A stretch of DNA of 64,000 bases from Thaumarchaeota archaeon UBA223 (GCA_002495905.1 DAHJ01000035.1:37478-101477); one strand, 5' to 3'. Counted from the first letter of the stretch, positions 8,566 to 54,516 are shown. The notes: generated by a model not told the origin, from the letters alone. Made by a program: numbers and translations.

Positions 8566-9324
8566 TTGAAATTGGTACGCGCGCAAAACTCAAGTAATGC
8601 TTTAAACAACAGGTTATCTGCACATGCAAATTATGCAAAATTTGAGATAAATGATTGGATAATTCCAAAATTAGAAATTAAAGAAAACGATAATGTATTA
8701 GATATAGCATGTGGAAATGGAAAACAACTAATTCCAATAAGTGAAATCATTAACAAGGATGGATCAATTACAGGATTAGATATATCAAAAGATCTTCTAG
8801 ATGAAATTGAATCAAATATTAAGAGAAAGAACGTGTTCTTAAAAAATGAAAGTATGGAGAACATAAACAAAGAATTCAAGAATGAACAATTCGATCTAAT
8901 ATTGTGTTGTTTTGGATTATATTATTCAAAAGATTACAAAAAAACAATTAAGGACATTTATGATAAATTAAAGAATGGAGGCAGATGTTTCGTTTGTGGT
9001 CCTGTCAAAAGAAATAACAAAGAATTAACAGACATACATGAAACATTTGAAAAGCTTCCTGAAGAATACAATATGCATAATACTTTCATGGAATCAAAAG
9101 CTTTACCATATTTTGAAACATTATTTGGAGAAGTGCAAACAGAAATTTTTGAAAATCCTATAACTTTTCCAAGTAAAGATGAATTGTTAAGATATTGGAA
9201 ATCATATACATTATTTGAGAAGGAAGAGCAGAGTAAATTTGAGAAAGTATTAGAAGACATATTCATAAGAGAAAATAAGTTTATAACAAAAAAAGTAGTA
9301 ATGGGAATATCAGCTAAGAAATGA
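8566..9324 (+). CDS. Class I SAM-dependent methyltransferase
   Basis: It has SAM motif I (VLDIACGNGKQ) and the acidic loop GLDIS. 252 aa. Confidence 0.75.
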   Translation: MKLVRAQNSSNALNNRLSAHANYAKFEINDWIIPKLEIKENDNVLDIACGNGKQLIPISEIINKDGSITGLDISKDLLDEIESNIKRKNVFLKNESMENINKEFKNEQFDLILCCFGLYYSKDYKKTIKDIYDKLKNGGRCFVCGPVKRNNKELTDIHETFEKLPEEYNMHNTFMESKALPYFETLFGEVQTEIFENPITFPSKDELLRYWKSYTLFEKEEQSKFEKVLEDIFIRENKFITKKVVMGISAKK

Positions 9325-10019
9325 CATTAAATTATAAGAATAAAAAATTATTAGTTATTGCACCCCATCCCGATGATGAAGTCCTTGGTTGTGGAGGTTT
9401 AATTTCAAAAGTTAAATCGTCAGGTGGAGAAGTTCATGTTTTATGTTTTACTGTTGGAAATATCAAACAATATGGAGGAACTAGTAACTTTGAAAAAAGA
9501 GTAGTAGAAATGAAGAAAGTAATGAGATATTTGAAAGTAGATTCATTCGATTTAGCATGGGCAGGTGATGAATATCACCTAAAACTTGACAAAGTTCCAC
9601 AAAAGGATTTGATTAACACAATTGAAAAAGGAGATGTTTCATTATCAACAGTAAAACCGGATATAATAGCAATACCTTTCATAGGGTCTACTAATCAAGA
9701 TCATGTTGCAGTTGCCAAAGCTAGTTTTACAGCATGCAGACCTGTAAGAAATAATGAAAAAGACATTACAAAAATAGTATTATCATATGAGCAACCAGAA
9801 ACAAATTGGACTAGAAAAAGATTTCATCCTAATTTTTATGTTGATATATCAAAGGAATTAAAAAAGAAAATAAAGGCATTATCTTTGTATTCATCTCAAG
9901 TAAGAAGCAAGAATCATCCCAGAACCCCAAGAGTAATTGAAAATATAGCAGAACTAAGAGGGACAGAAATAGGTGTTAAATATGCAGAAGCATATGAATG
10001 TCACAGATTGATAATTTAA
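9321..10019 (+). CDS. PIG-L/LmbE-family N-acetyl-sugar deacetylase
   Basis: It contains the LVIAPHPDDEVLGCGG signature and a downstream HxxH-type region. Confidence 0.8.
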   Translation: MTLNYKNKKLLVIAPHPDDEVLGCGGLISKVKSSGGEVHVLCFTVGNIKQYGGTSNFEKRVVEMKKVMRYLKVDSFDLAWAGDEYHLKLDKVPQKDLINTIEKGDVSLSTVKPDIIAIPFIGSTNQDHVAVAKASFTACRPVRNNEKDITKIVLSYEQPETNWTRKRFHPNFYVDISKELKKKIKALSLYSSQVRSKNHPRTPRVIENIAELRGTEIGVKYAEAYECHRLII

Positions 10020-10061
10020 TTAGAAAAGAATTTATTATGTATGAAGAAGTAGAGTAATAAA

Positions 10062-11036
10062 ATGAAAATATTAGTCACGGGTTCTTCAGGGTTTTATGGT
10101 TCACATTTAATTGATTTATTATTAAAAGAAACTGATGCAGAAATATATGGAGTAGATAATTTACACAGACTAGAAGATTTTCCAGTAGACCCATTTGAGA
10201 TAATTGAGAATAAAGAACAATTTAATGAGAGATTTGTTAATTGGGAGATGGATTATAGAGATTTAAAGGCAGAAAAGATTGACGAGGCAGGGATTGACAC
10301 ACTAATTCATCTGGCTGCACTAGTATCGATTCCAGAATCAATGGAAAAACCGATGGAATATTTTGAATCAAATGAAAAAGGAACATTCAATCTATGTCAG
10401 GAATTATTAAAGACTAAAAGTAAACCATTTTTGATTTATGCGTCTTCGCCAGAAGTTTATGGAAATCCAATATATACACCAATGGATACAGATCATCCTT
10501 GTCGTCCTAGAAGTTTTTATGCAGCTACAAAGTTGGCGGCAGAAAAACAATGTATGGTATTACATGAATGGTATAAATATCCAGTTTCAGTAATTAGAAA
10601 TTTCAACACATATGGTGAAAATCAAAGTAATTCGTATAGAGGATATGCTGCAGTAGTACCAGAATTTGTAACTAGAGCATTGAAAAATGAGAAAATCAAA
10701 ATTCATGGAAATGGTAAACAAACTAGAGATTTAATGTATGTAAAAGACGCAGTTGAAGCATACGTAAGAGTAATGAAAGAAAGAGAAAAGACTCAAGGAG
10801 AAGTATTCAACATTGGAACAGGTATTCAAACAAGCATATTAGATCTTGCAAAGAAGATTATGGAAATATCAGGTTCTTCATCTGAGCTAGTTTATGAATC
10901 AGAAAGAGCGGCAGATCTAGAAAGATTAGAGGCAGATTGTAGTAAAACAGAAAAATTGTTGAAGTGGAAACCAGAATATACTATTGATAAAGGTTTAGAC
11001 ATAACAATTTCATGGTTTAAAAAATTATTAGAATAA
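10062..11036 (+). CDS. NAD-dependent nucleotide-sugar epimerase/dehydratase (extended SDR)
   Basis: It has a Rossmann motif (VTGSSGFYGSHL), the catalytic YAATKLAAE (YxxxK) and a SSPEVYG segment. Confidence 0.85.
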   Translation: MKILVTGSSGFYGSHLIDLLLKETDAEIYGVDNLHRLEDFPVDPFEIIENKEQFNERFVNWEMDYRDLKAEKIDEAGIDTLIHLAALVSIPESMEKPMEYFESNEKGTFNLCQELLKTKSKPFLIYASSPEVYGNPIYTPMDTDHPCRPRSFYAATKLAAEKQCMVLHEWYKYPVSVIRNFNTYGENQSNSYRGYAAVVPEFVTRALKNEKIKIHGNGKQTRDLMYVKDAVEAYVRVMKEREKTQGEVFNIGTGIQTSILDLAKKIMEISGSSSELVYESERAADLERLEADCSKTEKLLKWKPEYTIDKGLDITISWFKKLLE

Positions 11037-11088
11037 TCATATAACAACATTGGTAGATGTTATAAATAATATCTGCAAATAATCTATA

Positions 11089-11991
11089 TTGAATAACAAT
11101 AAAATAACAATTCTAAATGATGCAGCTTGGGTAGGTTATGAATTAGCAAATGGACTTAGAGAGGCGAACATGGAAGTTATTTATTTGCCCAGAAATTATG
11201 CAGGTCCAAATGTAAATACCAATGCATTATATTCAATATATGGAAAGGTCATAAATCCATTTGTAAATGCAATTAAAGCTAAAGGGATAATACATGTAAA
11301 CTATGCATTGCAAGATGCATTTTTTGTACGATTAATTAAAAAAGAGATCAATGTATTGCATTGTCATGGAACCGATTTATTTGGATTATATGATGAAGAA
11401 TTTAAAAAGAATAGTAAAGACCTGACTAGATGGAGAAGAATTATTGAAGGAAATTTGAAATATGCAAATTCAGTAATTGTATCAACGCCAGAAATGTTGA
11501 AATTAGCAAAAACAATCAGGCAAGATGCAGAATATTTACCCAATCCAATAGATACAACTAGATTTTGTCCAAAGGCAAAACAAAATACGCAATTAAAAGC
11601 AATAGGATTTAATTCATGGTATGAAAGAGTGCCAAAATATTTAATTGAACTTATGGAAAAGAATGGTATAAAAGTAGACATACATGACAGAAGACCATTT
11701 TCATATCTAGAATTACATGAGAATTTGAAGGAATATGACATATATATTGACAGAATATTTACCAAAGGAGTATCTTCATACAGTAAAACATGTTTAGAAG
11801 CCATGGCATGTGGTCTTGTGACCATAGATTATAGGCATAAAGATAATGTAAATGAACGAGTAATTGAATTATTAGATGAAGTTGAAAGAAGAAAAGAATC
11901 AGAAAAGAATAGACAATTCATAATTAACAATCATGATAGAGAAAAAGTAATTAAGAAACTATTAAACATATATAGAAAACAAGTAGAATGA
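11089..11991 (+). CDS. GT-B-fold glycosyltransferase-like protein (short)
   Basis: The C-terminal part has SKTCLEAMACGLVTI, resembling the GT4 E..lEAMAcG motif. 300 aa with a TTG start. Confidence 0.5.
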   Translation: MNNNKITILNDAAWVGYELANGLREANMEVIYLPRNYAGPNVNTNALYSIYGKVINPFVNAIKAKGIIHVNYALQDAFFVRLIKKEINVLHCHGTDLFGLYDEEFKKNSKDLTRWRRIIEGNLKYANSVIVSTPEMLKLAKTIRQDAEYLPNPIDTTRFCPKAKQNTQLKAIGFNSWYERVPKYLIELMEKNGIKVDIHDRRPFSYLELHENLKEYDIYIDRIFTKGVSSYSKTCLEAMACGLVTIDYRHKDNVNERVIELLDEVERRKESEKNRQFIINNHDREKVIKKLLNIYRKQVE

Positions 11992-13106
11992 TTATGAAAA
12001 TAGCAATAGTACATTATGACATATCTATGCAAACTGGTGCACAAAGGTTAGTATTAGGAATGGGAAATTCATTAAAGAAACTTGGTCATGAAGTTGCTTA
12101 TTTTACTGCTATCTATGATCAAGAAAAGGCTTTTGAAGAGTTTAGAAACGAAAATGTAATAGTAAGTAATGGAAAGCTAGATTATTTTGGAAGATTTAGA
12201 GCAATAACGGCATACAGAGAAAGTAAAGAAATGATGAAAACAGGAATAAATAAATTTAAGCCAGATTTGTATGTGTTTAGTTCAAATTATTATCTAGCAG
12301 ACAATTATAAACCATCAATGATATATTGTCATCATCCAGAACAGTTATTGATTAGAAAGGGTGACTTTATCAGAAAACTACTACATTTTCCAATAGATAG
12401 AGCAGAGAATAAAGGATTCAAAGAAACAGACATAATATTATGTAATTCTGATTTTACAAAAAGTGCAATAAATGAGAAATTTAACAGAAATAGTACAATA
12501 ATTTTTCCAGGAGTTGATGTAGATAAATTTACACGAAACGAGGTGGATGAAGAATACATTCTGACAGTAAACAGAATTGTTCCGAATAAGAACCTAATAT
12601 TCGCAATAGAATTAATTGATAAGATGAAGAAAAGAGACAATAAAATAAAATTAATCATCGTAGGAGTAAAACAAGTTGGATTTGAATGGCATTTAGATGA
12701 ATTAAATAATAAAATTAAAGAATTAGAATTAAGTGACAATATAGAAATTCATACAAATGTAACTGATTCAGAATTAGTGAATTCATATAAGAATTGTAGT
12801 GTGTTTTTATATACGCCTAAAGAAGAACATTTTGGAATTGCTCCAATTGAAGCAATGGCATGTGGAAAACCTGTAATTGCATTCAATACAGGCGGGCCAA
12901 AAGAAACCATAATAAACGACATAACTGGATATTTGTTGGAAGAGGATTTAGATCAATGGGAAAATAAGATATTTTATCTGTTAAAGAATAATCAAAAAAG
13001 AATGGATATGAGTATAGCAGCGAGAAACAGAATAGTAGATGAATTTAGTTGGGATGCATTTATGAGAAAAATCAAAGACAGTTTAGATAAGATAAAAGTT
13101 AATTAA
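11988..13106 (+). CDS. Glycosyltransferase family 4
   Basis: It has the EEHFGIAPIEAMACGKPVIAFNTGGPKETI signature. 372 aa. Confidence 0.85.
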   Translation: MIMKIAIVHYDISMQTGAQRLVLGMGNSLKKLGHEVAYFTAIYDQEKAFEEFRNENVIVSNGKLDYFGRFRAITAYRESKEMMKTGINKFKPDLYVFSSNYYLADNYKPSMIYCHHPEQLLIRKGDFIRKLLHFPIDRAENKGFKETDIILCNSDFTKSAINEKFNRNSTIIFPGVDVDKFTRNEVDEEYILTVNRIVPNKNLIFAIELIDKMKKRDNKIKLIIVGVKQVGFEWHLDELNNKIKELELSDNIEIHTNVTDSELVNSYKNCSVFLYTPKEEHFGIAPIEAMACGKPVIAFNTGGPKETIINDITGYLLEEDLDQWENKIFYLLKNNQKRMDMSIAARNRIVDEFSWDAFMRKIKDSLDKIKVN

Positions 13107-15067
13107 ACCAAATTTGAATCAATTTGTAAAGAACTATTAGGAAATACTACTGCATTAGTATCTTTGTCATGTTGTTTTTGTAATTCATTAATGAGCGTAT
13201 CCCAATTATTAAAAATTTTAACGTCTTCAGAGTAATGATCGTAAATGTAGTTCTGATTAATTGTAGGACAATAGAATATAAGATTTCGATCTTGAAGTGG
13301 GCCACCGAATGTTCCATGTTTGTCTCTGCGAACATGATGAATCATTCCTTTACCAACCAATCCATGTTCTCCGATTCCTTCAGACGCAGAGGTAATAACA
13401 ACAATTGTACCACCTTTTCTTACAATTTCTTTATCAGAATCTCTAGAACCCCATACATTGAGTGAGTTTAATGCAAGTAGAAACCATGTATCTCGAGGAA
13501 AGGCATTAAAAATTCCAACATCCATGTTATATGGAACATTGGTAGAATAAACATCGACAGCTTTCTTTGACGCAGTATTGAATACATCAACAGGGTTTCC
13601 AGAATATATAGAAGCAGTATCGCCAAGAGAATTAGAAATAGTATTAACGATAAAATCCAATCCAGCCATACTTGCAGCTTCTTCTATATCTGCACGCCTA
13701 CTATTATTCTCAACTTGTCCAATTTTACCTTGAAGAGACTTATTGACAGGTTTATGATTTGCGTCAATAGATTCGATTCCTGCAAGCCCAGGTAATACGA
13801 TTTTTCCTCCGCCACTAAAACCCGCATATGGATGTGGCATTAGAGTTCCAATTCCAATTTTAAGATCTGCTTGAAGATATAATTTATCGATATATACAGG
13901 AGTGCCAGCAGATGTTTCTCCCAAATATTTATTGTTTTGATAAGCGCTATGACAATATATTTTATATTTAGAAACTATTTTTGTTCCTAATTTTTTACAT
14001 AATTCAGCATGTGTTAAAGAACGATGAGTTCCTGTGCTTATAATGAAATAAATGTTTTCGTTAGACAAGCCAGAATTGTGAAGTTCTTCCAATATAAAAG
14101 GAATAATTCGAAATGCTTGAGTAGGTTTAGTTAAATCGTCGACTGCAATACAAACGGATTTCTTTTGTTTAGCAAGAACAGATAATTTTTCCGAATTAAG
14201 TGGATTAGAGATTGAATGAGAAATTTCTTGATCAGAAATTGATGCAGCATTATTCATTTGAGAAATATTAACATTCCAGGATTCAGGGAAAGTCAGATTC
14301 AATGATTCATTACCATACCAAGATTTCCAAGGTACCGAAATAGAATTAATTTTTTTTATATGAGACCAATCAAAATCTTGCATAAGTAATTCAGTAAACC
14401 TAAGGTCAAGATTTTCATCAATGTTTAATGAACGTTCAGGAGGCATAATATATGCATGACTCTTAGAACCTTTGAGAGATTTTGAATTAATGAGAATGTC
14501 GCGTTTAGTAGCATAAATTGCTCCATTTCGAATATATACAGGAGGAAGAGCCTGTCGTGGCATATTTTCTACAGTTTCATCAGCATAATCCACTAATTCG
14601 TCATTAACAATTTTTTTCATTCGATAAGGATGTATAGCTCCAACATCGACAACACTAATAACTGAATCATAATCAGATTCAAACAATTTGTTTACAGAAT
14701 AATCTATGTCTTCAAACGTACGTAAAGGAGTTGTTGGTTGAAGCATCACTACAGCGTCATAAGTAGTATTTTCTTGTTTTTCAAGTTCCAATACTGCATG
14801 AGTAAGAACATCAATAGCAAGTGAATCGTCTTTTGCCAATGAGTCAGGACGAATAAATGGAACAGATGCACCATACGATTTAGAAATACGAATAATTTCA
14901 TCATCTTCTGAAGATACAATAAGATTAGACAAGGTTTTTGATTTTAACGCTTCAACAATTGTATAAGAAATAAGAGGTCGATCCAGAATAGATTTAATAT
15001 TCTTTCGAGGGATGGTTTTCGAACCTCCTCTAGCAGGAATAATGCCAAGAATATGTTTATCTGTCAT
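13103..15067 (-). CDS. Fusion protein: N-terminal acylneuraminate/CMP-sugar cytidylyltransferase domain plus C-terminal LarA-like (nickel-pincer-dependent racemase/epimerase, DUF2088) domain
   Basis: The N-terminus has IIPARGGSKTIPRKNIK...LQPTTPLR (CMP-NeuAc/KDO synthetase fold). The C-terminus has AVDDLTKPT, STGTHR, MPHPYAGFSGGGKIVLPG and a His 16 residues after the Lys, collinear with LarA catalytic and cofactor residues. Confidence 0.8.
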   Translation of the reverse strand: MTDKHILGIIPARGGSKTIPRKNIKSILDRPLISYTIVEALKSKTLSNLIVSSEDDEIIRISKSYGASVPFIRPDSLAKDDSLAIDVLTHAVLELEKQENTTYDAVVMLQPTTPLRTFEDIDYSVNKLFESDYDSVISVVDVGAIHPYRMKKIVNDELVDYADETVENMPRQALPPVYIRNGAIYATKRDILINSKSLKGSKSHAYIMPPERSLNIDENLDLRFTELLMQDFDWSHIKKINSISVPWKSWYGNESLNLTFPESWNVNISQMNNAASISDQEISHSISNPLNSEKLSVLAKQKKSVCIAVDDLTKPTQAFRIIPFILEELHNSGLSNENIYFIISTGTHRSLTHAELCKKLGTKIVSKYKIYCHSAYQNNKYLGETSAGTPVYIDKLYLQADLKIGIGTLMPHPYAGFSGGGKIVLPGLAGIESIDANHKPVNKSLQGKIGQVENNSRRADIEEAASMAGLDFIVNTISNSLGDTASIYSGNPVDVFNTASKKAVDVYSTNVPYNMDVGIFNAFPRDTWFLLALNSLNVWGSRDSDKEIVRKGGTIVVITSASEGIGEHGLVGKGMIHHVRRDKHGTFGGPLQDRNLIFYCPTINQNYIYDHYSEDVKIFNNWDTLINELQKQHDKDTNAVVFPNSSLQIDSNLV

Positions 15068-15070
15068 GAA

Positions 15071-16012
15071 TTAACTTCCTTCCCAATTGTATATAGTTTT
15101 TCCATTAATTTTAGAAGCAAATCTCCCACGATAATAATCACGATTAAGTAATTCTTCTTCACTTAATGAATGAGTTTTTGAACCTAACATATCATTATAA
15201 TTTGGAATATTTTCTACGAGTTTAAACAATTCGTCATGATTAAATTTTGAATAGTCAACAAGATGTTTCAATTGTTCTGGATTAATAGATACAGGACCAT
15301 CTTTTGTCTGTGAAGAATCAAGTATAGTAAAATGACGTTCAATTACATCTGCGCCTTTCCATAATGCTACTATATCAGGATCAATTCCGTGTTTAATAGG
15401 AGACGTATGATCACTAAACCCAACATAATCTGTAAACTTACGAAGATAATCTAGTCGATTAAGATTTAGTTTGTCTACAGGAGTTGGGTAAATTGTAACG
15501 CAATGTAAGAATGAGAAGTTTTGATTGCGAAGAATGTCAGCAGTATTTTCTATTTCTGAATCATGAGTAGCACCGGTTGAAACATAGATATGATTAAATT
15601 TATTTTTAAGGTCGGTAATTAAAGGAAAACTTGCACAATCATAACTTGCAATTTTGATTTCTTTAAAACCGAGTTCAATAATAGAATCAAGTCGACTACG
15701 ATTAAATACAGTAGTAAGAGGAATAACGCCTGCAGCTGAACATTCATCTATAAACATAGAATGTACGTCAAATCCAAGTTCTAATTTACTTAATCTTTCA
15801 AATTCAAATGAATAAGGTCTTTTAATTGATTTTACAATACCATTAGAAGTAATTCCGTTTTCAAATCGCTCTCGAAAAGTCAGATCTTCTGAAAAGATTG
15901 TTTGTATTTTAACATGTGATGCGCCAGAATTAGCTGCGCTCCAAATCATATCCTTTAGAATATTTACATCGCCGTTATGATTTTGACAAAGTTCAGCAAT
16001 TATTTTTGTCAA
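15071..16012 (-). CDS. NeuB-family sialic/nonulosonic acid synthase-like protein with a truncated C-terminal SAF region
   Basis: It contains IIAELCQNHNGD, HVKIQT, IKIASYD, LHCVTIYPTP..LNLNRL, VGFSDHT and VIERHFTILD. It is only 313 aa. Confidence 0.8.
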   Translation of the reverse strand: MTKIIAELCQNHNGDVNILKDMIWSAANSGASHVKIQTIFSEDLTFRERFENGITSNGIVKSIKRPYSFEFERLSKLELGFDVHSMFIDECSAAGVIPLTTVFNRSRLDSIIELGFKEIKIASYDCASFPLITDLKNKFNHIYVSTGATHDSEIENTADILRNQNFSFLHCVTIYPTPVDKLNLNRLDYLRKFTDYVGFSDHTSPIKHGIDPDIVALWKGADVIERHFTILDSSQTKDGPVSINPEQLKHLVDYSKFNHDELFKLVENIPNYNDMLGSKTHSLSEEELLNRDYYRGRFASKINGKTIYNWEGS

Positions 16013-16064: not shown

Positions 16065-16952
16065 ATGATAGGTGCATCTACGTCATATTATGGATATCAT
16101 GGAGAATCGATTGAGAACAAAGTAAAGAAATTAATCGATATATTTGTAAAATGTGAGATGAAGCCTTATATTCAAATCGGAGCAGGAAAAAATAATATCG
16201 AATATAATGAATTAGTAAATATATTAAACGATTATAGAGATAAAAATGAAGTAATTTATACTATACATCAGAGTATTTGGTTACCTTCGGATGATTTTTA
16301 CATAAATATTGCGAGTTCAGACGAACAAATTAGAGAAAAGAGTATTAATTGTATAGAAAAGAATATTGAATTTGCAAGAGATATTGGAGTGAAGAATATA
16401 TCATTTCATGGAGGTTATGCAACAAACACCTTATCACAAAAACAGGAATTTGCTCCATTAGATTCACAAGATAGCATCAGTTATGAAGAAGCATATAATA
16501 ATTCGATCGACTCACTGAATAGATTAATTGAAATAGCAAATGGAGATGTTAAATTAAGTATAGAAAATTTTAATTTTCGGCCTGAAAGAAGATATTTATT
16601 TTCAAGAGTTGAAGATTTTGACAGAATACCTGATAAAATAGGCGTAATTATGAATATTGGACATCTATACTATACTAAGATGAGATTAAAACAAGAAGAT
16701 TATATTACAAAAATGATTGATGCATTGACAGATAAAGTAAATGAGATACACATTAACGACAATGATGGTTCTGAAGATTTACATAAACTTGTAGGTAAAG
16801 GAGATATTCCAATAAGAGAGATATTAAAACTAATTAAAGAAAAGAGAGATTTACCACATTTAATTATTGAAGCACATAAACAAAGACATAGTTATTCAGA
16901 TGATGACCTTATAAATAACATATTAGAATTGAGAGAAATAGCTAGAAACTAA
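16065..16952 (+). CDS. Xylose-isomerase-like TIM-barrel sugar(-phosphate) isomerase/epimerase
   Basis: It shows the ISFHGG, LSIEN, GHLYY and IHINDNDGSEDLH metal-ligand pattern typical of the AP_endonuc_2 fold. Confidence 0.65.
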   Translation: MIGASTSYYGYHGESIENKVKKLIDIFVKCEMKPYIQIGAGKNNIEYNELVNILNDYRDKNEVIYTIHQSIWLPSDDFYINIASSDEQIREKSINCIEKNIEFARDIGVKNISFHGGYATNTLSQKQEFAPLDSQDSISYEEAYNNSIDSLNRLIEIANGDVKLSIENFNFRPERRYLFSRVEDFDRIPDKIGVIMNIGHLYYTKMRLKQEDYITKMIDALTDKVNEIHINDNDGSEDLHKLVGKGDIPIREILKLIKEKRDLPHLIIEAHKQRHSYSDDDLINNILELREIARN

Positions 16953-18631
16953 ATTGTTTGATATTCTATGTGATCGATTTTTTCAATCATTTCACGTCCA
17001 AATAGACTCCATCCATCAAAGAACATACAGGGTTGATTGGTTGTTGAGAGTAAAGAATAAACATCTAATTTAGAATAAGAATCATGATTATTCATAATTA
17101 ATACACAATCAGCATTTTTGAATCCATCTTCAATACTTACAGATTGAACATTAAAGGAATTAATTTGTGTTGTAGAAACTACAGGATCATAGCCAAATAT
17201 ATTATTTGAAACATTAGATAATTTATTAGTGACATCAAGCGTAGCAGATTGACGCGTATCCGAGGTTTCTGGATTTCCTTTGAATGCAAATCCCATAACA
17301 AAGATTTTCAATTTAGAAACATCCTTATTTTGTGATTTACTGAAACGTTCAATTTTTGTAACGATGTGGTCCGACATACTTTCGTTAACAAGTCGAGCAA
17401 GTTCTGTAAGTTTTGGAACATAGCCGGTATTTTTTGAACTAGAAATCAATATATGAGGATCTTTTTTAAGACATATTCCACCGACGCCAGGACTTGGTTT
17501 TGGTATGTTATTCCTAGGATATCCTTCATTAGCAGCTTGAATTAATTTGGATGTATCTATACCGTAATTATCAGCAAGAAGTGCAATTTGATTAGAATAA
17601 GCAAATATCATATCGCGAAATGTATTATCCATGAGTTTAATCAACTCTGCTTCTTCAAGAGAGTCGACGTTAATGATAGTGGGAGTTAATTTATTAAATA
17701 AACCATTAGTAAGTTGAGAACTAGTAAGGTTAAACCCTGCAATAATCTGAGGTAATTCACGAATTTCTTTTAATGCTTTACCAGCAAGAGTTCGTTCAGG
17801 TGCAGAAGCGACATAAAAATCACTATTAGAATCAAGTCCAGAAGATTTCTCAAGAATTGGGATAATATTATTTCGAGTAGTTCCAATCGGGACAGTAGAT
17901 CTTACAATAACTAGATTATTTTTAGATAAATTATTTGCTACATATTCAGTGGCAGAATTAAGATAGTCAAGAATTGGCTCATTATTATCATCAATTGGAG
18001 TTTGAACACATAAAATGTATACATCAGAAGGAGATTTAGAAGAAGTAGTTTGGATTTTTAGATTCTTTCCAACATGGAATTTTAGAAGAGAATCTAAACC
18101 AATTTCATGTATATGAGGAGTTCCTTGATTTAATTTTTTGACGATTTCTTCATTAGAATCTACGCCGGTTACATTGAAGCCAACTTCTGCAAGAGATACG
18201 GCAAGAGTTAAGCCAACATATCCAAGACCAATAACCGCAATTGAAGGTGTATTTTTTTGAACCAATTGTGATTTGTTTATAATATTAACAACTTGGTTAT
18301 TCTCGTTCACAATCAATATATTATGTTCTATTGTTTTCAGTTTGTCATGATGGAGCGATAATATATTTGTTTTATTGTTAGAATCTGATTCACTAATAGT
18401 AAAAGGAGATTTATTCATAATTACAGCAACTGTTTCGTTTAGATTATGATTTTCAAGTAATGCACGTCTGATATCGCCATCAGTAACTATACCAAGTAAA
18501 GAAGTAGAATCATCCACAATCAAAGCAATACCAGAAGGTAGATTATTATGAGGTGCTTGATTAATTATTTCAAGTACGTCCTTAATTTCAGTCTGAGGAG
18601 AAACGAGAATCTCCTTAAATGTCTTTGTCAT
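16949..18631 (-). CDS. CBS-pair domain fused to a nucleotide-sugar dehydrogenase (UDP-ManNAc/UDP-Glc dehydrogenase family)
   Basis: The N-terminal ~120 aa contain CBS motifs (GIALIVDD..LLGIVTDGDIRRAL). These are followed by IAVIGLGYVGLTLA (Rossmann) and SPGVGGICLKKDP (catalytic Cys region). Confidence 0.85.
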   Translation of the reverse strand: MTKTFKEILVSPQTEIKDVLEIINQAPHNNLPSGIALIVDDSTSLLGIVTDGDIRRALLENHNLNETVAVIMNKSPFTISESDSNNKTNILSLHHDKLKTIEHNILIVNENNQVVNIINKSQLVQKNTPSIAVIGLGYVGLTLAVSLAEVGFNVTGVDSNEEIVKKLNQGTPHIHEIGLDSLLKFHVGKNLKIQTTSSKSPSDVYILCVQTPIDDNNEPILDYLNSATEYVANNLSKNNLVIVRSTVPIGTTRNNIIPILEKSSGLDSNSDFYVASAPERTLAGKALKEIRELPQIIAGFNLTSSQLTNGLFNKLTPTIINVDSLEEAELIKLMDNTFRDMIFAYSNQIALLADNYGIDTSKLIQAANEGYPRNNIPKPSPGVGGICLKKDPHILISSSKNTGYVPKLTELARLVNESMSDHIVTKIERFSKSQNKDVSKLKIFVMGFAFKGNPETSDTRQSATLDVTNKLSNVSNNIFGYDPVVSTTQINSFNVQSVSIEDGFKNADCVLIMNNHDSYSKLDVYSLLSTTNQPCMFFDGWSLFGREMIEKIDHIEYQTI

Positions 18632-18648
18632 ATCATTTCACAACCAGT

Positions 18649-20040
18649 TTAAACTGAATATTCTTTAGTAAAATCTATTATATATCTTAACAGGCGATCG
18701 GAAGATTTTCCATCTCTAAAAGAGCATTGATTATCAACAATTAGGTTACGTCCGTCAGAGTCAAGAGTAGGGTCATTAAGGTAACGATTAATTAATTTAT
18801 TTAGTTCGGTTTCTGAATTAGCAATTTTTACGCCATTAGATTTTACAATATCTATGTAATGGGAATATTGAAAATGTCGTTTAACTGAACGATTAAAATC
18901 AGGCTTAAGATTAGCGTCAAATCCAATATTTACTACAGGCGTATCAAATAAACAAGATTCTATAGTAATAGTAGAGGCAACATTAATCATAACGTCGGCA
19001 TGATGAAGTGTGTTAGATAAAATAGAATAATCAGTAAAATCAGATTTCCAGACATATCCCGAATCTTTGAATTCTTTTGATTCTTTTCCAGGTGTCTGAA
19101 TAATAACGTCAGGTTTATCAAATAAATCCTTGAAATCAGATAAACTACGACGTGGATGAACACGCAAAAGTAATTGGCAAGGGTAATCAAATTCATTATT
19201 CTGAATCATATCGTATATCATTTTAACGATAAATGGTTCAGAATCAGAGAGTTGAGCAGTACCAGTAGCATATAGTAAAATCTTCTTATTTTCTTGGCCA
19301 TTCAAATTTTGAAGAAATTTTTTACGATCAACAAGTAAAGAACTATTAGAATGAATATCGAATTGTGGAACACCTGTAATTAAAACACAGTCATCTGAAT
19401 AATCAAGAAAATTAGTTGCTTCATTTTTCATAATATTATTCCAAACAAGTAATTTATTCAATTTAATTGGAACTTCCCATTTAGAAGTAAGATTATCCCA
19501 ACTTGGAACATAACCAAGAATTGGAAGTTTAGATTTATGAGCATATCTCAGAATAGGATATGTATAAAATGAAAATGGATAAGTAACGAAAACGAAATCA
19601 GGTCGATGTTCATTAAACAAATCTTCATATTCAGAATTATTAAAAAGTGTAGAATCAAACCATTCAAGAATATTTTTTACAGCATTACTTTTTGCAAAAA
19701 GTCGACCTGCTGATTTACGAATTAAAGAAAGAAACGGATGAGAATCATCTAGTTCAGAAATCTTGATCTTAAGGGTTTCAGAATGAGGCTTAGAAGTATC
19801 AGCAAAAACATAATTTCTTAATAAACCAATGGCAATTTCAGATTTTGATCGAGGAATTTTTTTAAGAGTTTTAATTTCTACGTTTGGGTTATTGGATTCA
19901 ATCATATTAGGTTCACAAAGAAGAATGATTTTTAATCCTGAATTAGTAAGAATTTCAAGATTCTTTTCATTAATAATTGATTTCCATCCAATTCCATATG
20001 GAAGAACAATTAACAAAGTTTTATCATTATTGGCTGTCAT
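18649..20040 (-). CDS. Putative GT-B-fold glycosyl- or polyol-phosphate transferase (family uncertain)
   Basis: 463 aa with a two-Rossmann-like layout. LLLRVHPRR and NVASTITIESCLFDTPVVNIG resemble the donor-binding half of GT-B or TagF-like enzymes. The assignment is weak. Confidence 0.4.
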   Translation of the reverse strand: MTANNDKTLLIVLPYGIGWKSIINEKNLEILTNSGLKIILLCEPNMIESNNPNVEIKTLKKIPRSKSEIAIGLLRNYVFADTSKPHSETLKIKISELDDSHPFLSLIRKSAGRLFAKSNAVKNILEWFDSTLFNNSEYEDLFNEHRPDFVFVTYPFSFYTYPILRYAHKSKLPILGYVPSWDNLTSKWEVPIKLNKLLVWNNIMKNEATNFLDYSDDCVLITGVPQFDIHSNSSLLVDRKKFLQNLNGQENKKILLYATGTAQLSDSEPFIVKMIYDMIQNNEFDYPCQLLLRVHPRRSLSDFKDLFDKPDVIIQTPGKESKEFKDSGYVWKSDFTDYSILSNTLHHADVMINVASTITIESCLFDTPVVNIGFDANLKPDFNRSVKRHFQYSHYIDIVKSNGVKIANSETELNKLINRYLNDPTLDSDGRNLIVDNQCSFRDGKSSDRLLRYIIDFTKEYSV

Positions 20041-20103
20041 TTCTCTTTTAAACTGGTGTATGATGGTAAGAAACTTAATTAAAATGTTTCCACAATATTA
20101 ATC

Positions 20104-21441
20104 GTGAATCAGAAGCAGATACACGAATTACCCAGTAATATCAAATTAGGAAATAAGAAATTATCAATATATGGAATTGGATTTGTAGGAACTGCTATTG
20201 CCTCAACATGGTTAAGAGCAGGAGCTTCTATAATCGCAGTTGATAAGAAAAGCAAATTGGTAAATGAAATAAACAATAAAAAGACAACTAACTCAGAACC
20301 AAAAGCAAAAGAAGCATTTTTAGAAGGCATAAACAATAAGAAATTAATAGCGACGTCAAATGGTAAATGGGCGTCAAAGAATTCAGATATTAAAATTATT
20401 TCAGTTCCTGTAGGATTAGATAAAAGAACAGCAGACTTAAGATTCCTATATGAAGTTGTAGATGACATAATTACTGGATTGAAAAAAGATGACATAATAA
20501 TTGTTACGCCAACAGTGCCGATAGGAACTTCAACAAAAATTATTAAATTAATTGAAAATAAAACAAGATTATCAGTTGAAAAAGATTTCTTTTTCATTTA
20601 TAATCCAGAGAGAATATCAGCAGGTCAGGCAATAAGTGATATAGAGAATAATTATCCACCAATATTATCAGGATCTGGAAAAACAAGTATAAAGATAGCA
20701 AATAAGATGTTTGGAATAATTTCGTCGAAAAAACCAATTATTATGTCGTGTACTGAAGCAGCTGAGGCTGAGAAATTAATTGAAGGATTATACAGAGACG
20801 TAAACATTGCATTAGCAAATGAATTATCTGTATTTTGCGAGAAATTAGGAATAGATTTTTGGGAAATTAGAGATGCTGCGAATTCACAACCGTACAGTCA
20901 ACTTCATAAACCTGGAATAGGAGTAGGAGGATATTGCATTCCAGTATATCCCTGGCTATTAACGCAAACTGCAATTGACAAAGGAATTAATGTGAATTTT
21001 CCATTATTGGGAAGATACACTAATGAAAAGATGCCAGAATATTCCGTAAACCGAATTATGTCAAAGATTGGAAAGAAAAAGAACATAACGGCATTGATTC
21101 TAGGGTTAAGTTTTAGAGGAAATGTAGCAGATAATCGAATTTCTCCAACATATGATGTTGTTAAAGAGTTAATGAAAAAGAAAGTAAAGATAAGAGTTCA
21201 TGATCCATTTTTTGATTATGATCCACTATTGCCAAAACAAGTAAAGCTAAGTTGTGAATTGGACAAAGTAATTTCTGGAGTAGACGTAATAATAATCTCA
21301 ACAGATCATAATGAATACAAGGAGATTGACGAAGAATATATAATAAAGAAATCTAAGAAAAAACCAATGATTTTTGATGGAAGAAATATATTAAACCAAG
21401 ATGATTTTAAGAAATTAAAAATACTAACAATTGGAAAATAA
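20104..21441 (+). CDS. Nucleotide-sugar dehydrogenase (UDP-ManNAc/UDP-Glc dehydrogenase family)
   Basis: It has LSIYGIGFVGTAIA (Rossmann), YNPERISAG and KPGIGVGGYCIPVYP (catalytic Cys). The start is GTG. Confidence 0.85.
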   Translation: MNQKQIHELPSNIKLGNKKLSIYGIGFVGTAIASTWLRAGASIIAVDKKSKLVNEINNKKTTNSEPKAKEAFLEGINNKKLIATSNGKWASKNSDIKIISVPVGLDKRTADLRFLYEVVDDIITGLKKDDIIIVTPTVPIGTSTKIIKLIENKTRLSVEKDFFFIYNPERISAGQAISDIENNYPPILSGSGKTSIKIANKMFGIISSKKPIIMSCTEAAEAEKLIEGLYRDVNIALANELSVFCEKLGIDFWEIRDAANSQPYSQLHKPGIGVGGYCIPVYPWLLTQTAIDKGINVNFPLLGRYTNEKMPEYSVNRIMSKIGKKKNITALILGLSFRGNVADNRISPTYDVVKELMKKKVKIRVHDPFFDYDPLLPKQVKLSCELDKVISGVDVIIISTDHNEYKEIDEEYIIKKSKKKPMIFDGRNILNQDDFKKLKILTIGK

Positions 21442-22137
21442 TCAACTATTGAATTCTTTTTGAGCTTCTTCAATATCTTTATGACTATCAATAGAACGCC
21501 ATTTTACATTATTTTGTTTTATTGCAGATAATTTATTTTCAGTGGCAAGAATAGGAAAAACATCAGACTCAAGACTGCCAACGTCAGATAAATAATTGAA
21601 GATATTATTTGAAAAACAATAAATTCCTGCATTAATCCAATGGTCGTCAAGGATTGGTTTCTCAGTAAAACTAGATATTAGACCATCATCTTGAATTTCA
21701 ATTTCACCAAATGGACTTCTTAATGCAACAACTGCGATAGTGCCAATCAAATCATCGTTAAGATTGTGAATCAAACTACTAGGATCAATATTTGTCATTA
21801 TATCCCCATTCATAACTAGAAAACTAGATTCTGATTCAAGTAATGAACGTGATTGCATTAATGCGCCACCAGTGCCAAGAGGTTCGTCTTCTTTAGAATA
21901 CTCAATATTAACTTCTAATTGTTCTCCATTTCCAAAATACTCAATAATATTATCTCCCAAATAGCCAGTACAAAGGACAAAATCACGAATGTTATGGGAT
22001 TTAAGCCAAGTAATCTGCCATTCAAGAATAGGCTTGTCAGAAATAGGAATCATAGGTTTTGGTTTATCGTCAGTAAGAGGCCTAAGGCGTTTTCCCATTC
22101 CGCCTGCGAGAATAAGTGCTTTCATAATATATTTCAA
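21442..22137 (-). CDS. Sugar-1-phosphate nucleotidyltransferase
   Basis: It has the ALILAGGMGKRLRPLTDDKPKPMIP signature. 231 aa. Confidence 0.85.
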   Translation of the reverse strand: MKYIMKALILAGGMGKRLRPLTDDKPKPMIPISDKPILEWQITWLKSHNIRDFVLCTGYLGDNIIEYFGNGEQLEVNIEYSKEDEPLGTGGALMQSRSLLESESSFLVMNGDIMTNIDPSSLIHNLNDDLIGTIAVVALRSPFGEIEIQDDGLISSFTEKPILDDHWINAGIYCFSNNIFNYLSDVGSLESDVFPILATENKLSAIKQNNVKWRSIDSHKDIEEAQKEFNS

Positions 22138-34217: not shown

Positions 34218-35114
34218 ATGTTAAACAGTCTATCAAAGGACAAACCTAGAGAAATATTGAATATAGAATATAAAGGGAATTCAGAAATAGGTAAGAGAGA
34301 AGGAACTTATCACGATTATAATAGATTAAATAATTTAACTAGTAAAGAATGGATAAAATTCCAGAAAAGTTGGTTTATAATCAATCCAAAATCCAGAAAG
34401 AAGGATGTAATGATGCATCCAGCAAAGTTTCCCGAGGAATTAATTGAAAATTTCATTAGGTTCTTTACAAAAGAAGGTCAAACAGTATTTGATCCAATGG
34501 TAGGTACTGGAAGTACATTACTTGCAGCAATGAACACAAATAGAAATGCAATAGGAATTGAATTATCCAAAAAATATGCAAATGTAGCCGCTCAAAGAGT
34601 AAATGATGAAAGTGAAATGATGAACAATTCAGGAGATAAAAACAATATCAAGTTATACAATGGAGATGCACGAATGTTGGACAGAATAATAAGTTCTAAT
34701 ATTGATTATTGTATAACTTCGCCTCCATATTGGGACATGTTAAGAGAGAAAGGATTTGAAACACAAAAAACCCGAGAGAAAATGAATTACGATACACATT
34801 ATTCAGAAGATGGACGTGATGTAGGAAATATAGAAGATTACATGAGATTTTTAGATGAATTAAAAGAAATATATTTGAAAGTTCACAGTGTAATGAAAAT
34901 AGGAGGATATCTAACAGTGATTGTTAAAAACATAAAGAAAGGAGGGAAGATATATCCACTAGCTTGGGATCTAACTAAAAAACTTGATTTCTTTACATTG
35001 AAAGATGAAAAGATATGGTGTCAAGACAATGTGAAATTAGCCCCATATGGATATGGATATTCCTGGGTAAGCAATACAGTTCATCATTATTGTTTAATTT
35101 TTAAGAAAGAGTAA
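34218..35114 (+). CDS. N4/N6 DNA methyltransferase (SPPY type) with motif I preceding motif IV
   Basis: HPAKFPEELIENFIRFFTKEGQTVFDPMVGTGSTLLAA (motif X/I) lies upstream of DYCITSPPYWD (motif IV). Confidence 0.75.
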   Translation: MLNSLSKDKPREILNIEYKGNSEIGKREGTYHDYNRLNNLTSKEWIKFQKSWFIINPKSRKKDVMMHPAKFPEELIENFIRFFTKEGQTVFDPMVGTGSTLLAAMNTNRNAIGIELSKKYANVAAQRVNDESEMMNNSGDKNNIKLYNGDARMLDRIISSNIDYCITSPPYWDMLREKGFETQKTREKMNYDTHYSEDGRDVGNIEDYMRFLDELKEIYLKVHSVMKIGGYLTVIVKNIKKGGKIYPLAWDLTKKLDFFTLKDEKIWCQDNVKLAPYGYGYSWVSNTVHHYCLIFKKE

Positions 35115-35257: not shown

Positions 35258-35956
35258 GTGGAAATATTTAGTTTTGCGGTTTTGGCTTTTTTAATGGGAA
35301 TCAAACATGCTTTCGATACAGATCATGTTATAGTAGTTTCAAATTTTTTATCTAGATCAAAGAGATTAAATGAATCTCTAAATATTAGCCTGAGTTGGGG
35401 AGTTGGACACATGTTAACTGCAGGAATTATTACAGTTATTATATTTTACAATATGAATTCATTTCCAGTAATAATGTTACTAGAGAATTTTGAGATAATA
35501 ATAGCAACCATCATGATAATAATGGGAATAGTTAGTATGACAATAGGAATTCCTATACAACATAAACATGAACATAATCACAATGGAATTAAACATGAAC
35601 ATACTCACACACATCGAATAGGAGGATTTATGAATAAAGATTTGAAATCTCATCATGCGTCATTTGGAGTTGGAATATTACACGGACTGGCGAGTAACGA
35701 TGAGTTATTTATTGTATTGGTTTTAGGATTGGGAATTGGCTCAATCACCGTGTTATTAGGAGCTTTATTTTTATTTTCAACAGGAGTGGTTTTAGGAATG
35801 ATCGTATTCAGTGTACTAGTGTTAAGAGTTTCAGATAGTATATCAAATAATTTTAAATGGATGCTGAATTATACATTTGCAATATCGGCAATCATATATG
35901 GATTATATTTACTTTATGCAAATACAAATTTGGAAATAATCAAGTATTTACTCTAA
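35258..35956 (+). CDS. NiCoT-like nickel/cobalt transporter with a His-rich loop
   Basis: It has GIKHAFDTDHVIV (the HAxDxDH signature of HoxN/NixA-type permeases), the loop HKHEHNHNGIKHEHTHTH, about 6 TM helices and a GTG start. Confidence 0.6.
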   Translation: MEIFSFAVLAFLMGIKHAFDTDHVIVVSNFLSRSKRLNESLNISLSWGVGHMLTAGIITVIIFYNMNSFPVIMLLENFEIIIATIMIIMGIVSMTIGIPIQHKHEHNHNGIKHEHTHTHRIGGFMNKDLKSHHASFGVGILHGLASNDELFIVLVLGLGIGSITVLLGALFLFSTGVVLGMIVFSVLVLRVSDSISNNFKWMLNYTFAISAIIYGLYLLYANTNLEIIKYLL

Positions 35957-53229: not shown

Positions 53230-54516
53230 TTAATTTTTAGAATAAATCATTATGTATTCATGTGAATATGATTTATTATGAGTGGTATTAGAAGAAACGA
53301 ACCTTCCAGTTTTGGGATCACGGGTTGTTGGAAGGCATTTAAATGGAATTTTTCTTTTGATGATTTTATCCTCAGTAAAACCAATAGTAGTAAGAATTTC
53401 ATCAAAGACTTGAGTGTTCGATATATCAACACCTCGTAGTGCAGTATTCCCTATAACCACGGCCATCTTTCCATTAGTTTTTAATAAATCATAGGATTTA
53501 TGAAAGAAATTTTGCATGTCTATAAAATAAGAATGTACAGTTTTGGACAAAGACTTGCTTGAGGAAAGCAAAGAATCTGCAATTAAACCACCAGTATGAC
53601 TATAAAGATTCTTATCGTCAGATTTACGATGAGAGGAGCCAATAAAATGTTTTTTTGAAGGAATATCTTTAAAAAAATCTTCCAAGAAAGACAAACTGAG
53701 AGAATGAATATCACGGTATTCGTAACTTATGACATATGGAGGAGAAGTAACAATTAAAGAACTCTTGTCAATAGTAGGGAGATTTTGCAGGTCTCCAACA
53801 AAGGCTCGTCGATAAAAATCAAGATTTTTGATTATCTTAGGAGACAGAGTATCGATTAATTGTTTATTTCTGATTTCCATTTTATTGACTTGAGAAAAAT
53901 ATCTAGATAACGGATCATTAACTCGATTAAGAAATTTAGTTTTATCTTTATGAGGTTTAACAGATCCATTATTCCAATAACTAGAAGTTTTTAGAATGTG
54001 AGAAAATGCACATAAGAAGAATATTTGTAATTTTCGTGGTTTGATTAATTTAATTTGAGATAAAAGATTATTTAAAATATTATAGGTTTCTTGATCAAAC
54101 CATTTTGATAATTCTTTAGGTATGTCATGATTTTCTTCGCTTGATGAGTTTTTAATATTATGATGTAGGGAAAGTTTAGTTTTAGAAATCTTAGAAGGGT
54201 CAAGAGGAGTTGTTTTTGCCATAGTAATCATGTGTGCAATAGGATTAACATCCGTACCTAAAGCTATTCTATTTTGAAGAATAGATTCAAGTATAGTTGA
54301 ACCTGAGCCATAAAAAGGATCACAAACTATGTCTCCGTCAAGAGAATTTTCAATTATTAAACGTCGTGCCAACTGAGGTATAAATTTAGCAGGATATCTG
54401 TGGTAACAATGTGTAAGATAGTTAGTATCTTTTTGTGTAAGATTATCAAAAGACCATGAATTTTCTACTTTAAACTTTGTAACAGGTTCAGAAAGACGTG
54501 ACCGGCTAATCGACAT
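53230..54516 (-). CDS. N4/N6 DNA methyltransferase (SPPY type) with a long insert between motif I and motif IV
   Basis: HRYPAKFIPQLARRLI...VCDPFYGSGSTILES (motif I) lies about 190 aa upstream of LIVTSPPYVISYEY (motif IV). Confidence 0.75.
   Translation of the reverse strand: MSISRSRLSEPVTKFKVENSWSFDNLTQKDTNYLTHCYHRYPAKFIPQLARRLIIENSLDGDIVCDPFYGSGSTILESILQNRIALGTDVNPIAHMITMAKTTPLDPSKISKTKLSLHHNIKNSSSEENHDIPKELSKWFDQETYNILNNLLSQIKLIKPRKLQIFFLCAFSHILKTSSYWNNGSVKPHKDKTKFLNRVNDPLSRYFSQVNKMEIRNKQLIDTLSPKIIKNLDFYRRAFVGDLQNLPTIDKSSLIVTSPPYVISYEYRDIHSLSLSFLEDFFKDIPSKKHFIGSSHRKSDDKNLYSHTGGLIADSLLSSSKSLSKTVHSYFIDMQNFFHKSYDLLKTNGKMAVVIGNTALRGVDISNTQVFDEILTTIGFTEDKIIKRKIPFKCLPTTRDPKTGRFVSSNTTHNKSYSHEYIMIYSKN

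Follow-up and report, generated by a model that had tools for sequence, protein, structure and literature searches.

What is a domain of the lactate racemase (LarA) superfamily, whose chemistry relies on a nickel-pincer nucleotide (NPN), doing in an enzyme that activates sugars with cytidine monophosphate (CMP)? The question is raised by a gene in a stretch of 64,000 nucleotides from Thaumarchaeota archaeon UBA223 (GCA_002495905.1 DAHJ01000035.1:37478-101477), the whole of which is referred to here as the window. A first annotation made by a model from the DNA alone (the sequence-only reading) had described this gene as a single uninterrupted open reading frame (ORF) of 654 amino acids that joins a CMP-sugar synthetase to a LarA-type domain. 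Our analysis revealed that the fusion gene of this marine ammonia-oxidising archaeon is a genuine, conserved two-module enzyme gene located in a surface-glycan cluster. The reading that we prefer, and to which we assign a probability of roughly 0.55, is that the protein couples CMP activation of a sugar acid to stereoinversion of the same sugar acid by an NPN-loaded LarA-like module in a surface-glycan pathway. The ORF starts with ATG, and it and its modules are arranged as follows:

13103..15067, minus strand: fusion ORF of 654 amino acids from the ORF listing, with a cytidylyltransferase and a LarA-like domain
14363..15067, minus strand: N-terminal module, residues 1-235, a NeuA/PseF-type CMP-ulosonic-acid synthetase (PF02348)
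13103..14350, minus strand: C-terminal module, residues ~240-654, a LarA-superfamily fold with both its N- and C-subdomains

Pfam, NCBIfam, Protein Data Bank (PDB) and Foldseek comparisons agree on these two domains and thus support the original assignment, and every motif quoted in the sequence-only reading is present at the place given for it. That reading had also considered that two genes might have been merged by a frameshift or an assembly join, and the existence of split versions, encoded in bacteria by separate adjacent genes, would be compatible with such an artefact. However, the identical 654-amino-acid protein is encoded on 9 contigs, the three displayed being ENA, JGI and Logan entries, and orthologues of 654 to 655 amino acids with 91 to 93% identity occur in metagenome-assembled genomes (MAGs) of several Thaumarchaeota/Nitrosopumilales (one genome per species was scanned). 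The fusion is therefore not a frameshift or assembly join. More distant fusions were found in Anaerolineae in the genome scan, and the fused homologues from MAGs and metagenomes, with identities as low as 44%, form 28 clusters at 90% identity. Furthermore, an AlphaFold2 model based on an 89-sequence alignment has a mean pLDDT (per-residue confidence) of 94.9 and a predicted template-modelling score (pTM) of 0.88, and the linker between the modules was modelled with confidence (block pLDDT 90-95). Taken together, the artefact reading was rejected as effectively refuted. Some members carry the automatic JGI annotation [quoted passage not shown], and the architecture is thus already visible in databases, although uncharacterised. 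A HMMER search of a representative library returned one fused representative (P0007) among the best 150, a number that is no measure of abundance because bacterial fusions disappear from view once sequences are clustered at 50% identity.

The C-terminal module was matched by Pfam Lar_N (PF09861) over residues 251-441 (E-value 1.2e-54; 185 bits against a cut-off of 23.3) and by the NCBIfam LarA-family models over residues 251-571. Its closest PDB entries are those of the broad-spectrum LarA from Isosphaera (9EID/9EIA; E-value ~1e-41 for 9eid), and further matches include the malate racemase Mar2 (6D6Z) and the Lactobacillus plantarum LarA (5HUQ). Foldseek comparison with 9EIA, 8EZF and 5HUQ gave template-modelling scores (TM-scores) of 0.83 to 0.85, normalised to the target, over ~430 columns at 22 to 25% identity, and the superposition covers the full length of LarA, including the last ~85 residues, which could not be aligned by sequence methods. 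The proposed collinearity with LarA thus extends over the whole fold, and the lysine and the two histidines singled out in the sequence-only reading do align. When the window protein was aligned with 117 homologues and LarA_Lp, the active-site residues fell into three segments:

14024..14137, minus strand: segment D311 to H348, with D311, K314 and H348
13754..13837, minus strand: segment P411-H438, with H412, K422 and H438 (alignment to 5huq and 9eid)
13460..13498, minus strand: equivalent of helix alpha-11, PRDTWFLLALNSL, with L530, L531 and N534 (ungapped alignment to 9eid and 5huq)

In LarA, the phosphate of NPN and the carboxylate of the substrate are bound by Arg75, and the ribose is bound by Asp72. 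In the window protein, D311 and K314 of the motif AVDDLTKPT take the positions of Asp72 and Arg75, respectively; H348 of STGTHR is at the position of the catalytic acid/base His108; H412 and K422 of MPHPYAGFSGGGK correspond to His174 and to Lys184, the NPN tether; and H438 corresponds to the nickel ligand His200 and lies, as had been counted before, exactly 16 residues past K422. D311, H348, H412, K422 and H438 are all invariant in the 117 homologues. The Arg-to-Lys change at K314 was confirmed as well; this position is K or R within the clade described below, and it is also a Lys (Lys76) in LarA_Sp, the structure of which was solved in the NPN-loaded form (PMC12611868).

The initial statement that residues defining LarA chemistry are preserved in the domain holds for Asp72, His108, His174, Lys184 and His200, but not for Tyr294, Gln295 and Lys298, which are replaced by L530, L531 and N534, respectively (PRDTWFLLALNSL against PLDxxxYQAVKGx in alpha-11). 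The Asn at the Lys298 position is invariant in the fusions. In LarA_Ip, the carboxylate of the substrate is held by Gln295 and Lys298, and Tyr294 is hydrogen-bonded to the 2-OH group (PMC11851776). Since this substrate clamp is replaced, the module is not a canonical 2-hydroxyacid racemase. Other residues are invariant and specific to the clade, such as R349, R458, R581, H584 and R594. Judged from these alignments, the cofactor-binding and acid/base machinery is intact, the canonical 2-hydroxyacid clamp is not, and the substrate site is remodelled.

A site of this kind could also belong to a cofactor-free or inert domain that serves the cytidylyltransferase as a scaffold, a sugar-binding unit or a regulatory unit. 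Such a role would agree with the loss of substrate-site residues, with the finding that the lar maturation genes were not found nearby (see below) and with the LarA homologues of cultured Nitrosopumilus, which form "group 12", have ~361 amino acids and lack the catalytic and NPN residues (Desguin 2020, PMC7583248). However, the window protein is not a group-12 member, and the 117 homologues, which come from archaea and several bacterial phyla, show no variation at the positions of its tether Lys, its nickel-binding His, Asp72 and the two catalytic His. Such invariance is not expected of a pseudoenzyme and therefore counts against an inert domain, which we consider very improbable.

The N-terminal module, of the NeuA/PseF/LegF type, was recognized by Pfam CTP_transf_3 (PF02348, a family that also covers KdsB) at residues 8-157 (E-value 1.6e-19; 71 bits against a cut-off of 22.6), and its closest PDB entry is 6ifd (E-value 5.6e-29), with 1eyr, 9ftb and 1qwj as additional matches. 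For its superposition on 6ifd, Foldseek gave a target-normalised TM-score of 0.91. The sequences IIPARGGSKTIPRKNIK and LQPTTPLR are present in this domain; the motifs ARGGSK, RKN, LQPTTP, PRQ and RNGAIY (NGAIY) are retained and align with 1eyr and 6ifd; and the residues expected at the CTP/sugar-binding positions were all found (Arg12, Lys21 of the P-loop, Gln104, Thr106, Arg165, Gln166 and Asn175). The NCBIfam PseF model covers residues 8-229 with a score of 146.8 bits, which is below the cut-off of 205.7 of this equivalog (TIGR03584).

To define how widely the two modules are associated, we searched all 79 genome-scan loci and the loci fetched earlier, using profiles built for both modules and for their NeuB-like and KdsA-like neighbours. 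A score of at least 580 bits against the LarA-like clade profile was reached by 29 genes. More than half of these (16/29; Thaumarchaeota and Anaerolineae) are fused to a cytidylyltransferase (CTP_transf_3), and another 6 are preceded on the same strand, at a distance of 21 to 165 bp, by a stand-alone cytidylyltransferase gene; these split pairs belong to SAR324, Omnitrophota, Planctomycetales, two Acidobacteriota and one unassigned contig. A cytidylyltransferase is encoded within 6 kb of 4 further clade genes, and no link was observed for the remaining 3, two of which are preceded by less than 0.5 kb of sequence. For 21 of the 29 genes, a synthase of the NeuB-like or KdsA-like type is encoded within ~3 kb. 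Among 54 lower-scoring LarA homologues (from Thermodesulfobacteriota, Caldilineaceae, Asgard archaea and others), the association was seen in two borderline clade members only. Pfam-annotated neighbourhoods show the same coupling pattern, and their recurring partners are an ATP-binding cassette (ABC) exporter, fusions of a family 2 glycosyltransferase (GT2) with CTP_transf_3, a formyltransferase, a polysaccharide deacetylase and methyltransferases.

The LarA-like and cytidylyltransferase modules are thus genetically linked across phyla, either in fused form or as split adjacent pairs. This distribution supports a functional link of the LarA-like module with the cytidylyltransferase and an ulosonic-acid synthase. 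In a crude neighbour-joining tree, calculated without support values, the split forms fall between the fused ones, which suggests that fusion or fission occurred more than once.

Two variants of the bacterial loci were observed. The GT2-CTP_transf_3 fusions, of ~460 amino acids, recur beside bacterial clade members (L004 12022-13416; L008 3315-4688; L022, L028, L029 and L077) and have a divergent P-loop in which ARGGSK is replaced by PAKNTY or PVRG. A KdsA-like DAHP_synth_1 gene takes the place of the gene for the NeuB-like synthase in some bacterial members (L008 6526-8513; L029; L077), and these loci also contain a shikimate-dehydrogenase-like gene and a gene for a GFO/IDH/MocA oxidoreductase. 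The KdsA-like loci hint at a different ulosonic-acid backbone that would be handled by the same pair of cytidylyltransferase and LarA-like modules.

In the window, the fusion gene lies in a glycan island that is flanked by a lysyl-tRNA synthetase gene and metE-like genes. The remaining genes of the island, identified by Pfam, are the following:

15071..16012, minus strand: NeuB-like phosphoenolpyruvate-condensing synthase, 313 amino acids (Pfam NeuB, E-value 2.7e-47; PDB 1vli, 6ncs and 8h2c)
16065..16952, plus strand: xylose-isomerase-like TIM-barrel protein (Pfam AP_endonuc_2, E-value 4.1e-25; best PDB match MJ1311, 3wqo)
8566..13106, plus strand: convergent glycan genes for a methyltransferase, a PIG-L deacetylase, an NAD-dependent epimerase/dehydratase, a GT4-like protein (300 amino acids) and a GT4 (family 4 glycosyltransferase)
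16949..22137, mixed strands: rest of the island, syntenic in loci L005 and L010-L020, and comprising the next three lines
16949..18631, minus strand: UDP-sugar dehydrogenase (UDP-glucose/GDP-mannose dehydrogenase family) with a CBS domain, 560 amino acids
18649..20040, minus strand: homologue of TagF-like CDP-glycerol glycerophosphotransferase (Glyphos_transf)
within 16949..22137: second UDP-sugar dehydrogenase (plus strand) and sugar-1-phosphate nucleotidyltransferase (minus strand)

The stop codon of the NeuB-like gene is located 3 nt ahead of the ATG of the fusion, and a GGAAGG sequence is present ~10 nt upstream of that ATG. The head-to-tail arrangement of both genes had been noted in the sequence-only reading, and from this spacing the NeuB-like gene, directly upstream, is predicted to be co-transcribed with the fusion. 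It adjoins the fusion in the Thaumarchaeotal loci listed as well. Both metal-binding His of the synthase are kept (in GFSDH and ERHFT), and the C-terminal SAF/antifreeze-like domain is absent. In NeuB, the SAF domain supplies a substrate-binding Arg, and the NeuB-like synthase may use an unusual aldose. The TIM-barrel gene is divergent from the NeuB-like gene and takes the same position in the Thaumarchaeotal loci with sufficient flanking sequence. The order of the convergent glycan genes is syntenic in Thaumarchaeotal loci, and the genes for the CBS-containing dehydrogenase and the TagF-like protein are both conserved in the Thaumarchaeotal island. At their stop codons, the fusion (13103..15067, minus strand) and the convergent GT4 gene (11988..13106, plus strand) have 4 nt in common. 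Elsewhere in the window, two N6/N4 DNA methyltransferase genes (34218..35114, plus strand, and 53230..54516, minus strand) have no obvious restriction partner nearby.

Equivalent clusters contain the same cytidylyltransferase domain fused to other modules. With 50 to 53% identity, it is joined to a D-2-hydroxyacid dehydrogenase in a cluster with the order ABC, fusion, GT2 and NeuB, and it is fused to an S-adenosylmethionine-dependent methyltransferase in a cluster that otherwise mirrors that of the window. The latter consists of a UDP-sugar dehydrogenase with CBS domain, an NTP-transferase, a 314-amino-acid NeuB-like protein that shares 54% identity with the one of the window, the fusion and a TagF-like protein. 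The dehydrogenase fusions are P0114 and P0118, and the methyltransferase fusion is P0094 (loci L009 2687-4414 and L093 10001-11449). Because the same domain carries either of these partners in equivalent clusters, the C-terminal slot looks exchangeable, and the C-terminal module looks like an exchangeable sugar-tailoring unit. These architectures suggest a family of fusions between a CMP-synthetase and a tailoring module. Modification of sugars that already bear CMP is not without precedent, since deacetylation, formylation and O-methylation of CMP-nonulosonic acids have been detected by mass spectrometry (bioRxiv 10.64898/2026.04.20.719630).

The exchange of modules bears on two further explanations. 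According to the first, the LarA-like module would leave the ulosonic sugar untouched and would racemise lactate, glycerate, malate or another small 2-hydroxy acid in its free form as the source of a sugar substituent, and where the D-2-hydroxyacid dehydrogenase is fused instead, the same isomer would be obtained by reduction of the keto acid. The presence of that dehydrogenase domain in the same position of an equivalent cluster speaks for this idea, and so do the retention of both catalytic His and the fact that every characterised LarA homologue works on free 2-hydroxy acids. However, the carboxylate/2-OH clamp of Tyr294, Gln295 and Lys298 is lost, the methyltransferase that also fills this position is a better fit to tailoring of the sugar itself, and the fusion or tight coupling to a cytidylyltransferase is hard to explain for a mere supplier of a metabolite. 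We therefore regard the supply of a small acid as unlikely.

According to the second, the module would bind NPN and carry out another hydride reaction on the sugar, either an aldose-ketose isomerisation or a net redox reaction with a partner. The swap with a dehydrogenase domain points to redox chemistry, NCBIfam names an NPN-dependent "hydroxyacid isomerase" subfamily, and Desguin 2020 suggests that LarA groups without Lys298 might catalyze another hydride-mediated reaction (PMC7583248). Both acid/base His are nevertheless retained in the window protein, which is the hallmark of the two-faced proton handling of racemases and epimerases, whereas a divergent LarA-like subfamily has a single His. 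This alternative also seems improbable to us.

Stereoinversion of the activated sugar acid would proceed as follows. The co-transcribed NeuB-like synthase would make a 3-deoxy-2-ulosonic acid, which the cytidylyltransferase module would turn into its CMP-activated form. The LarA-like module would carry NPN, for whose synthesis LarB, LarC and LarE would be encoded at another place of the genome, and, by the hydride shuttle of LarA, would transiently oxidise a CH-OH group to C=O and return the hydride on the other face. One hydroxyl-bearing stereocentre of the same sugar acid would thereby be inverted, either before activation or on the CMP-sugar, at a substrate site that would differ from that of all characterised LarA enzymes, and the neighbouring glycosyltransferases would then transfer the product. 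The two UDP-sugar dehydrogenases of the island raise the chemically attractive idea that a uronic acid might contribute a second, distal carboxylate and that the inverted stereocentre may be alpha to it, which would retain the 2-hydroxyacid logic of the family. The combination of modules suggests that a nickel cofactor may help to tailor an acidic sugar.

Several observations weigh against this proposal. Every characterised LarA homologue works at C2 of a free 2-hydroxy acid, and 2-keto-3-deoxy acids have no C2-H. The scores of the window protein against the NCBIfam LarA equivalogs (lactate racemase, the malate racemases LarAH5 and LarAH6, and LarAH10) were between 181.9 and 241.7 bits, far below the cut-offs of 460 to 540, and the match ends at about position 325 of the 420 model positions; no characterised LarA subgroup therefore includes this protein, and its membership in the lactate- or malate-racemase equivalogs was rejected. 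Lys298, one of the three clamp residues lost, is counted among the catalytic residues (Desguin 2020, PMC7583248), and the Y294A variant of LarA_Ip lost NPN (PMC11851776), so that with the clamp replaced canonical 2-hydroxy-acid chemistry is not assured.

The cytidylyltransferase module and the cluster add to these points. The Mg-binding "DID" motif (D209-x-D211), present in all four reference structures of CMP-nonulosonic acid synthetases compared, reads "NID" here (residues ~214-218), with the second Asp kept. "NID" occurs in nearly the whole clade, irrespective of whether the cytidylyltransferase is fused to LarA, stands alone beside LarA or is fused to other domains, and the "NID" cytidylyltransferases look like a distinct subfamily. 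The clade members with this motif come from loci L004-L029. Moreover, no aminotransferase or NeuC-type gene was found among the Pfam families of the genes called in the cluster; the sugar would therefore not derive from the textbook routes to neuraminic (Neu), legionaminic (Leg) or pseudaminic (Pse) acid, and a classical pathway of these types was rejected.

The supply of the cofactor is a further point of this kind. In agreement with the sequence-only reading, larB, larC and larE were not found in the 64-kb window by means of Pfam lists and of housekeeping ORFs (tRNA synthetases, ribosomal proteins) identified by eye from their translations, nor in ~17 kb of extra flank provided by longer contigs (~7 kb to the left and ~10 kb to the right), amounting to ~81 kb in total. 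In related marine Nitrosopumilales, however, a larE / larC / mdh / larB gene group is listed for the pelagic "Alpha AOA" (ammonia-oxidising archaea), and larB and larC are listed for the sediment clades (Kerou et al. 2021 supplement, PMC8397731), and the NPN pathway thus exists in the order. A 232-amino-acid membrane protein (35258..35956, plus strand), encoded ~20 kb from the LarA-like gene, contains "KHAFDTDHV", which resembles the HX4DH signature of the NiCoT permeases for nickel and cobalt. Pfam assigned 31 bits to DsbD_2 and 20.8 bits to NicO, the latter below the cut-off of 27.7. This protein could be a Ni/Co transporter.

The sequence-only reading knew of no characterised fusion of a LarA-type domain to a nucleotide-sugar enzyme, and our full-text search within the searchable library and the LarA papers likewise revealed no LarA homologue linked to a cytidylyltransferase, to NeuB or to nonulosonic/ulosonic-acid synthesis. 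The free 2-hydroxy acids on which all characterised LarA enzymes act as racemases or epimerases belong to central or fermentative metabolism. Tentatively, and at odds somewhat below even, we propose that the clade represents the first NPN enzyme of nucleotide-sugar/ulosonic-acid biosynthesis, namely, a Ni-dependent epimerase acting on an acidic sugar that is CMP-activated or about to be so. If this were true, nickel-pincer chemistry would extend to glycan building blocks, and the LarA field would gain a new class of substrates, with the product of the NeuB-like synthase as the genomic handle. The glycosylation of cell envelopes would then need nickel and LarBCE, both in an abundant group of marine ammonia-oxidising archaea and in several bacterial phyla, and one function of the "orphan" larBCE genes that are widespread in archaea would be accounted for. 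The nickel requirement of these marine archaea would also be tied to the make-up of their cell surface, with a bearing on phage recognition and surface charge. CMP-sugar synthetases would carry exchangeable fused modules (LarA-like, methyltransferase or 2-hydroxyacid dehydrogenase), and these interchangeable C-terminal modules would be natural controls for pathway work.

Comparison with known systems illustrates which features are shared. The C-terminal module resembles LarA_Lp (5HUQ), LarA_Ip (9EIA), Mar2 (6D6Z) and the gluconate 2-epimerase GntE in its whole two-subdomain fold and in the conserved Asp72, His108, His174, Lys184 and His200 positions, and GntE shows that the LarA family is able to act on sugar acids. 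It differs from the characterised homologues in its low identity (22 to 25%), in the Lys at the Arg75 position and in the Leu/Leu/Asn that replace Tyr294/Gln295/Lys298, and from every one of them in its fusion or genetic coupling with a cytidylyltransferase within glycan clusters. The single-histidine LarA-like subfamily (LarA_Sp and LarA_Bw; 9Q3K and 9Q3J; NCBIfam LarAH14/15/16) is also divergent and shares with the window protein the Lys for Arg75 and a remodelled substrate site. LarA_Sp binds NPN, and the subfamily is suspected to function in carbohydrate metabolism but has no known substrate. Its members have ~500 amino acids, form octamers and carry Asn at the His174 position, whereas both His are retained in the window protein, the match of which to the LarAH14/15/16 models is weak (54 to 61 bits).

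The N-terminal module has the same fold as the CMP-nonulosonic acid synthetases, namely, NeuA/CSS (6IFD and 1EYR), PseF (9FTB) and CMP-Kdn synthetase (9T4Z), with 34% identity to 6IFD. It also has in common with them the P-loop Arg and Lys, the QPT, RQ and NGxxY motifs and a NeuB-family neighbour. The differences are the Asn in place of the first Asp of DID, the partner NeuB-like protein without SAF domain and the score below the PseF equivalog cut-off. Nucleotide-sugar epimerases of the GalE type, which are short-chain dehydrogenases/reductases, offer a mechanistic analogy only, in that a CH-OH group is transiently oxidised and then reduced again from the opposite face; their fold is unrelated, they use NAD rather than NPN, and no homology is claimed. 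The same architectural logic is seen in bifunctional NeuA, in which a CMP-ulosonic-acid synthetase bears a C-terminal domain that tailors its own sugar. In the NeuA proteins of Escherichia coli K1 and group B Streptococcus, this domain is an O-acetylesterase acting on the same sugar and is of the SGNH type, whereas the corresponding position in the window protein is taken by a LarA-type nickel-cofactor domain.

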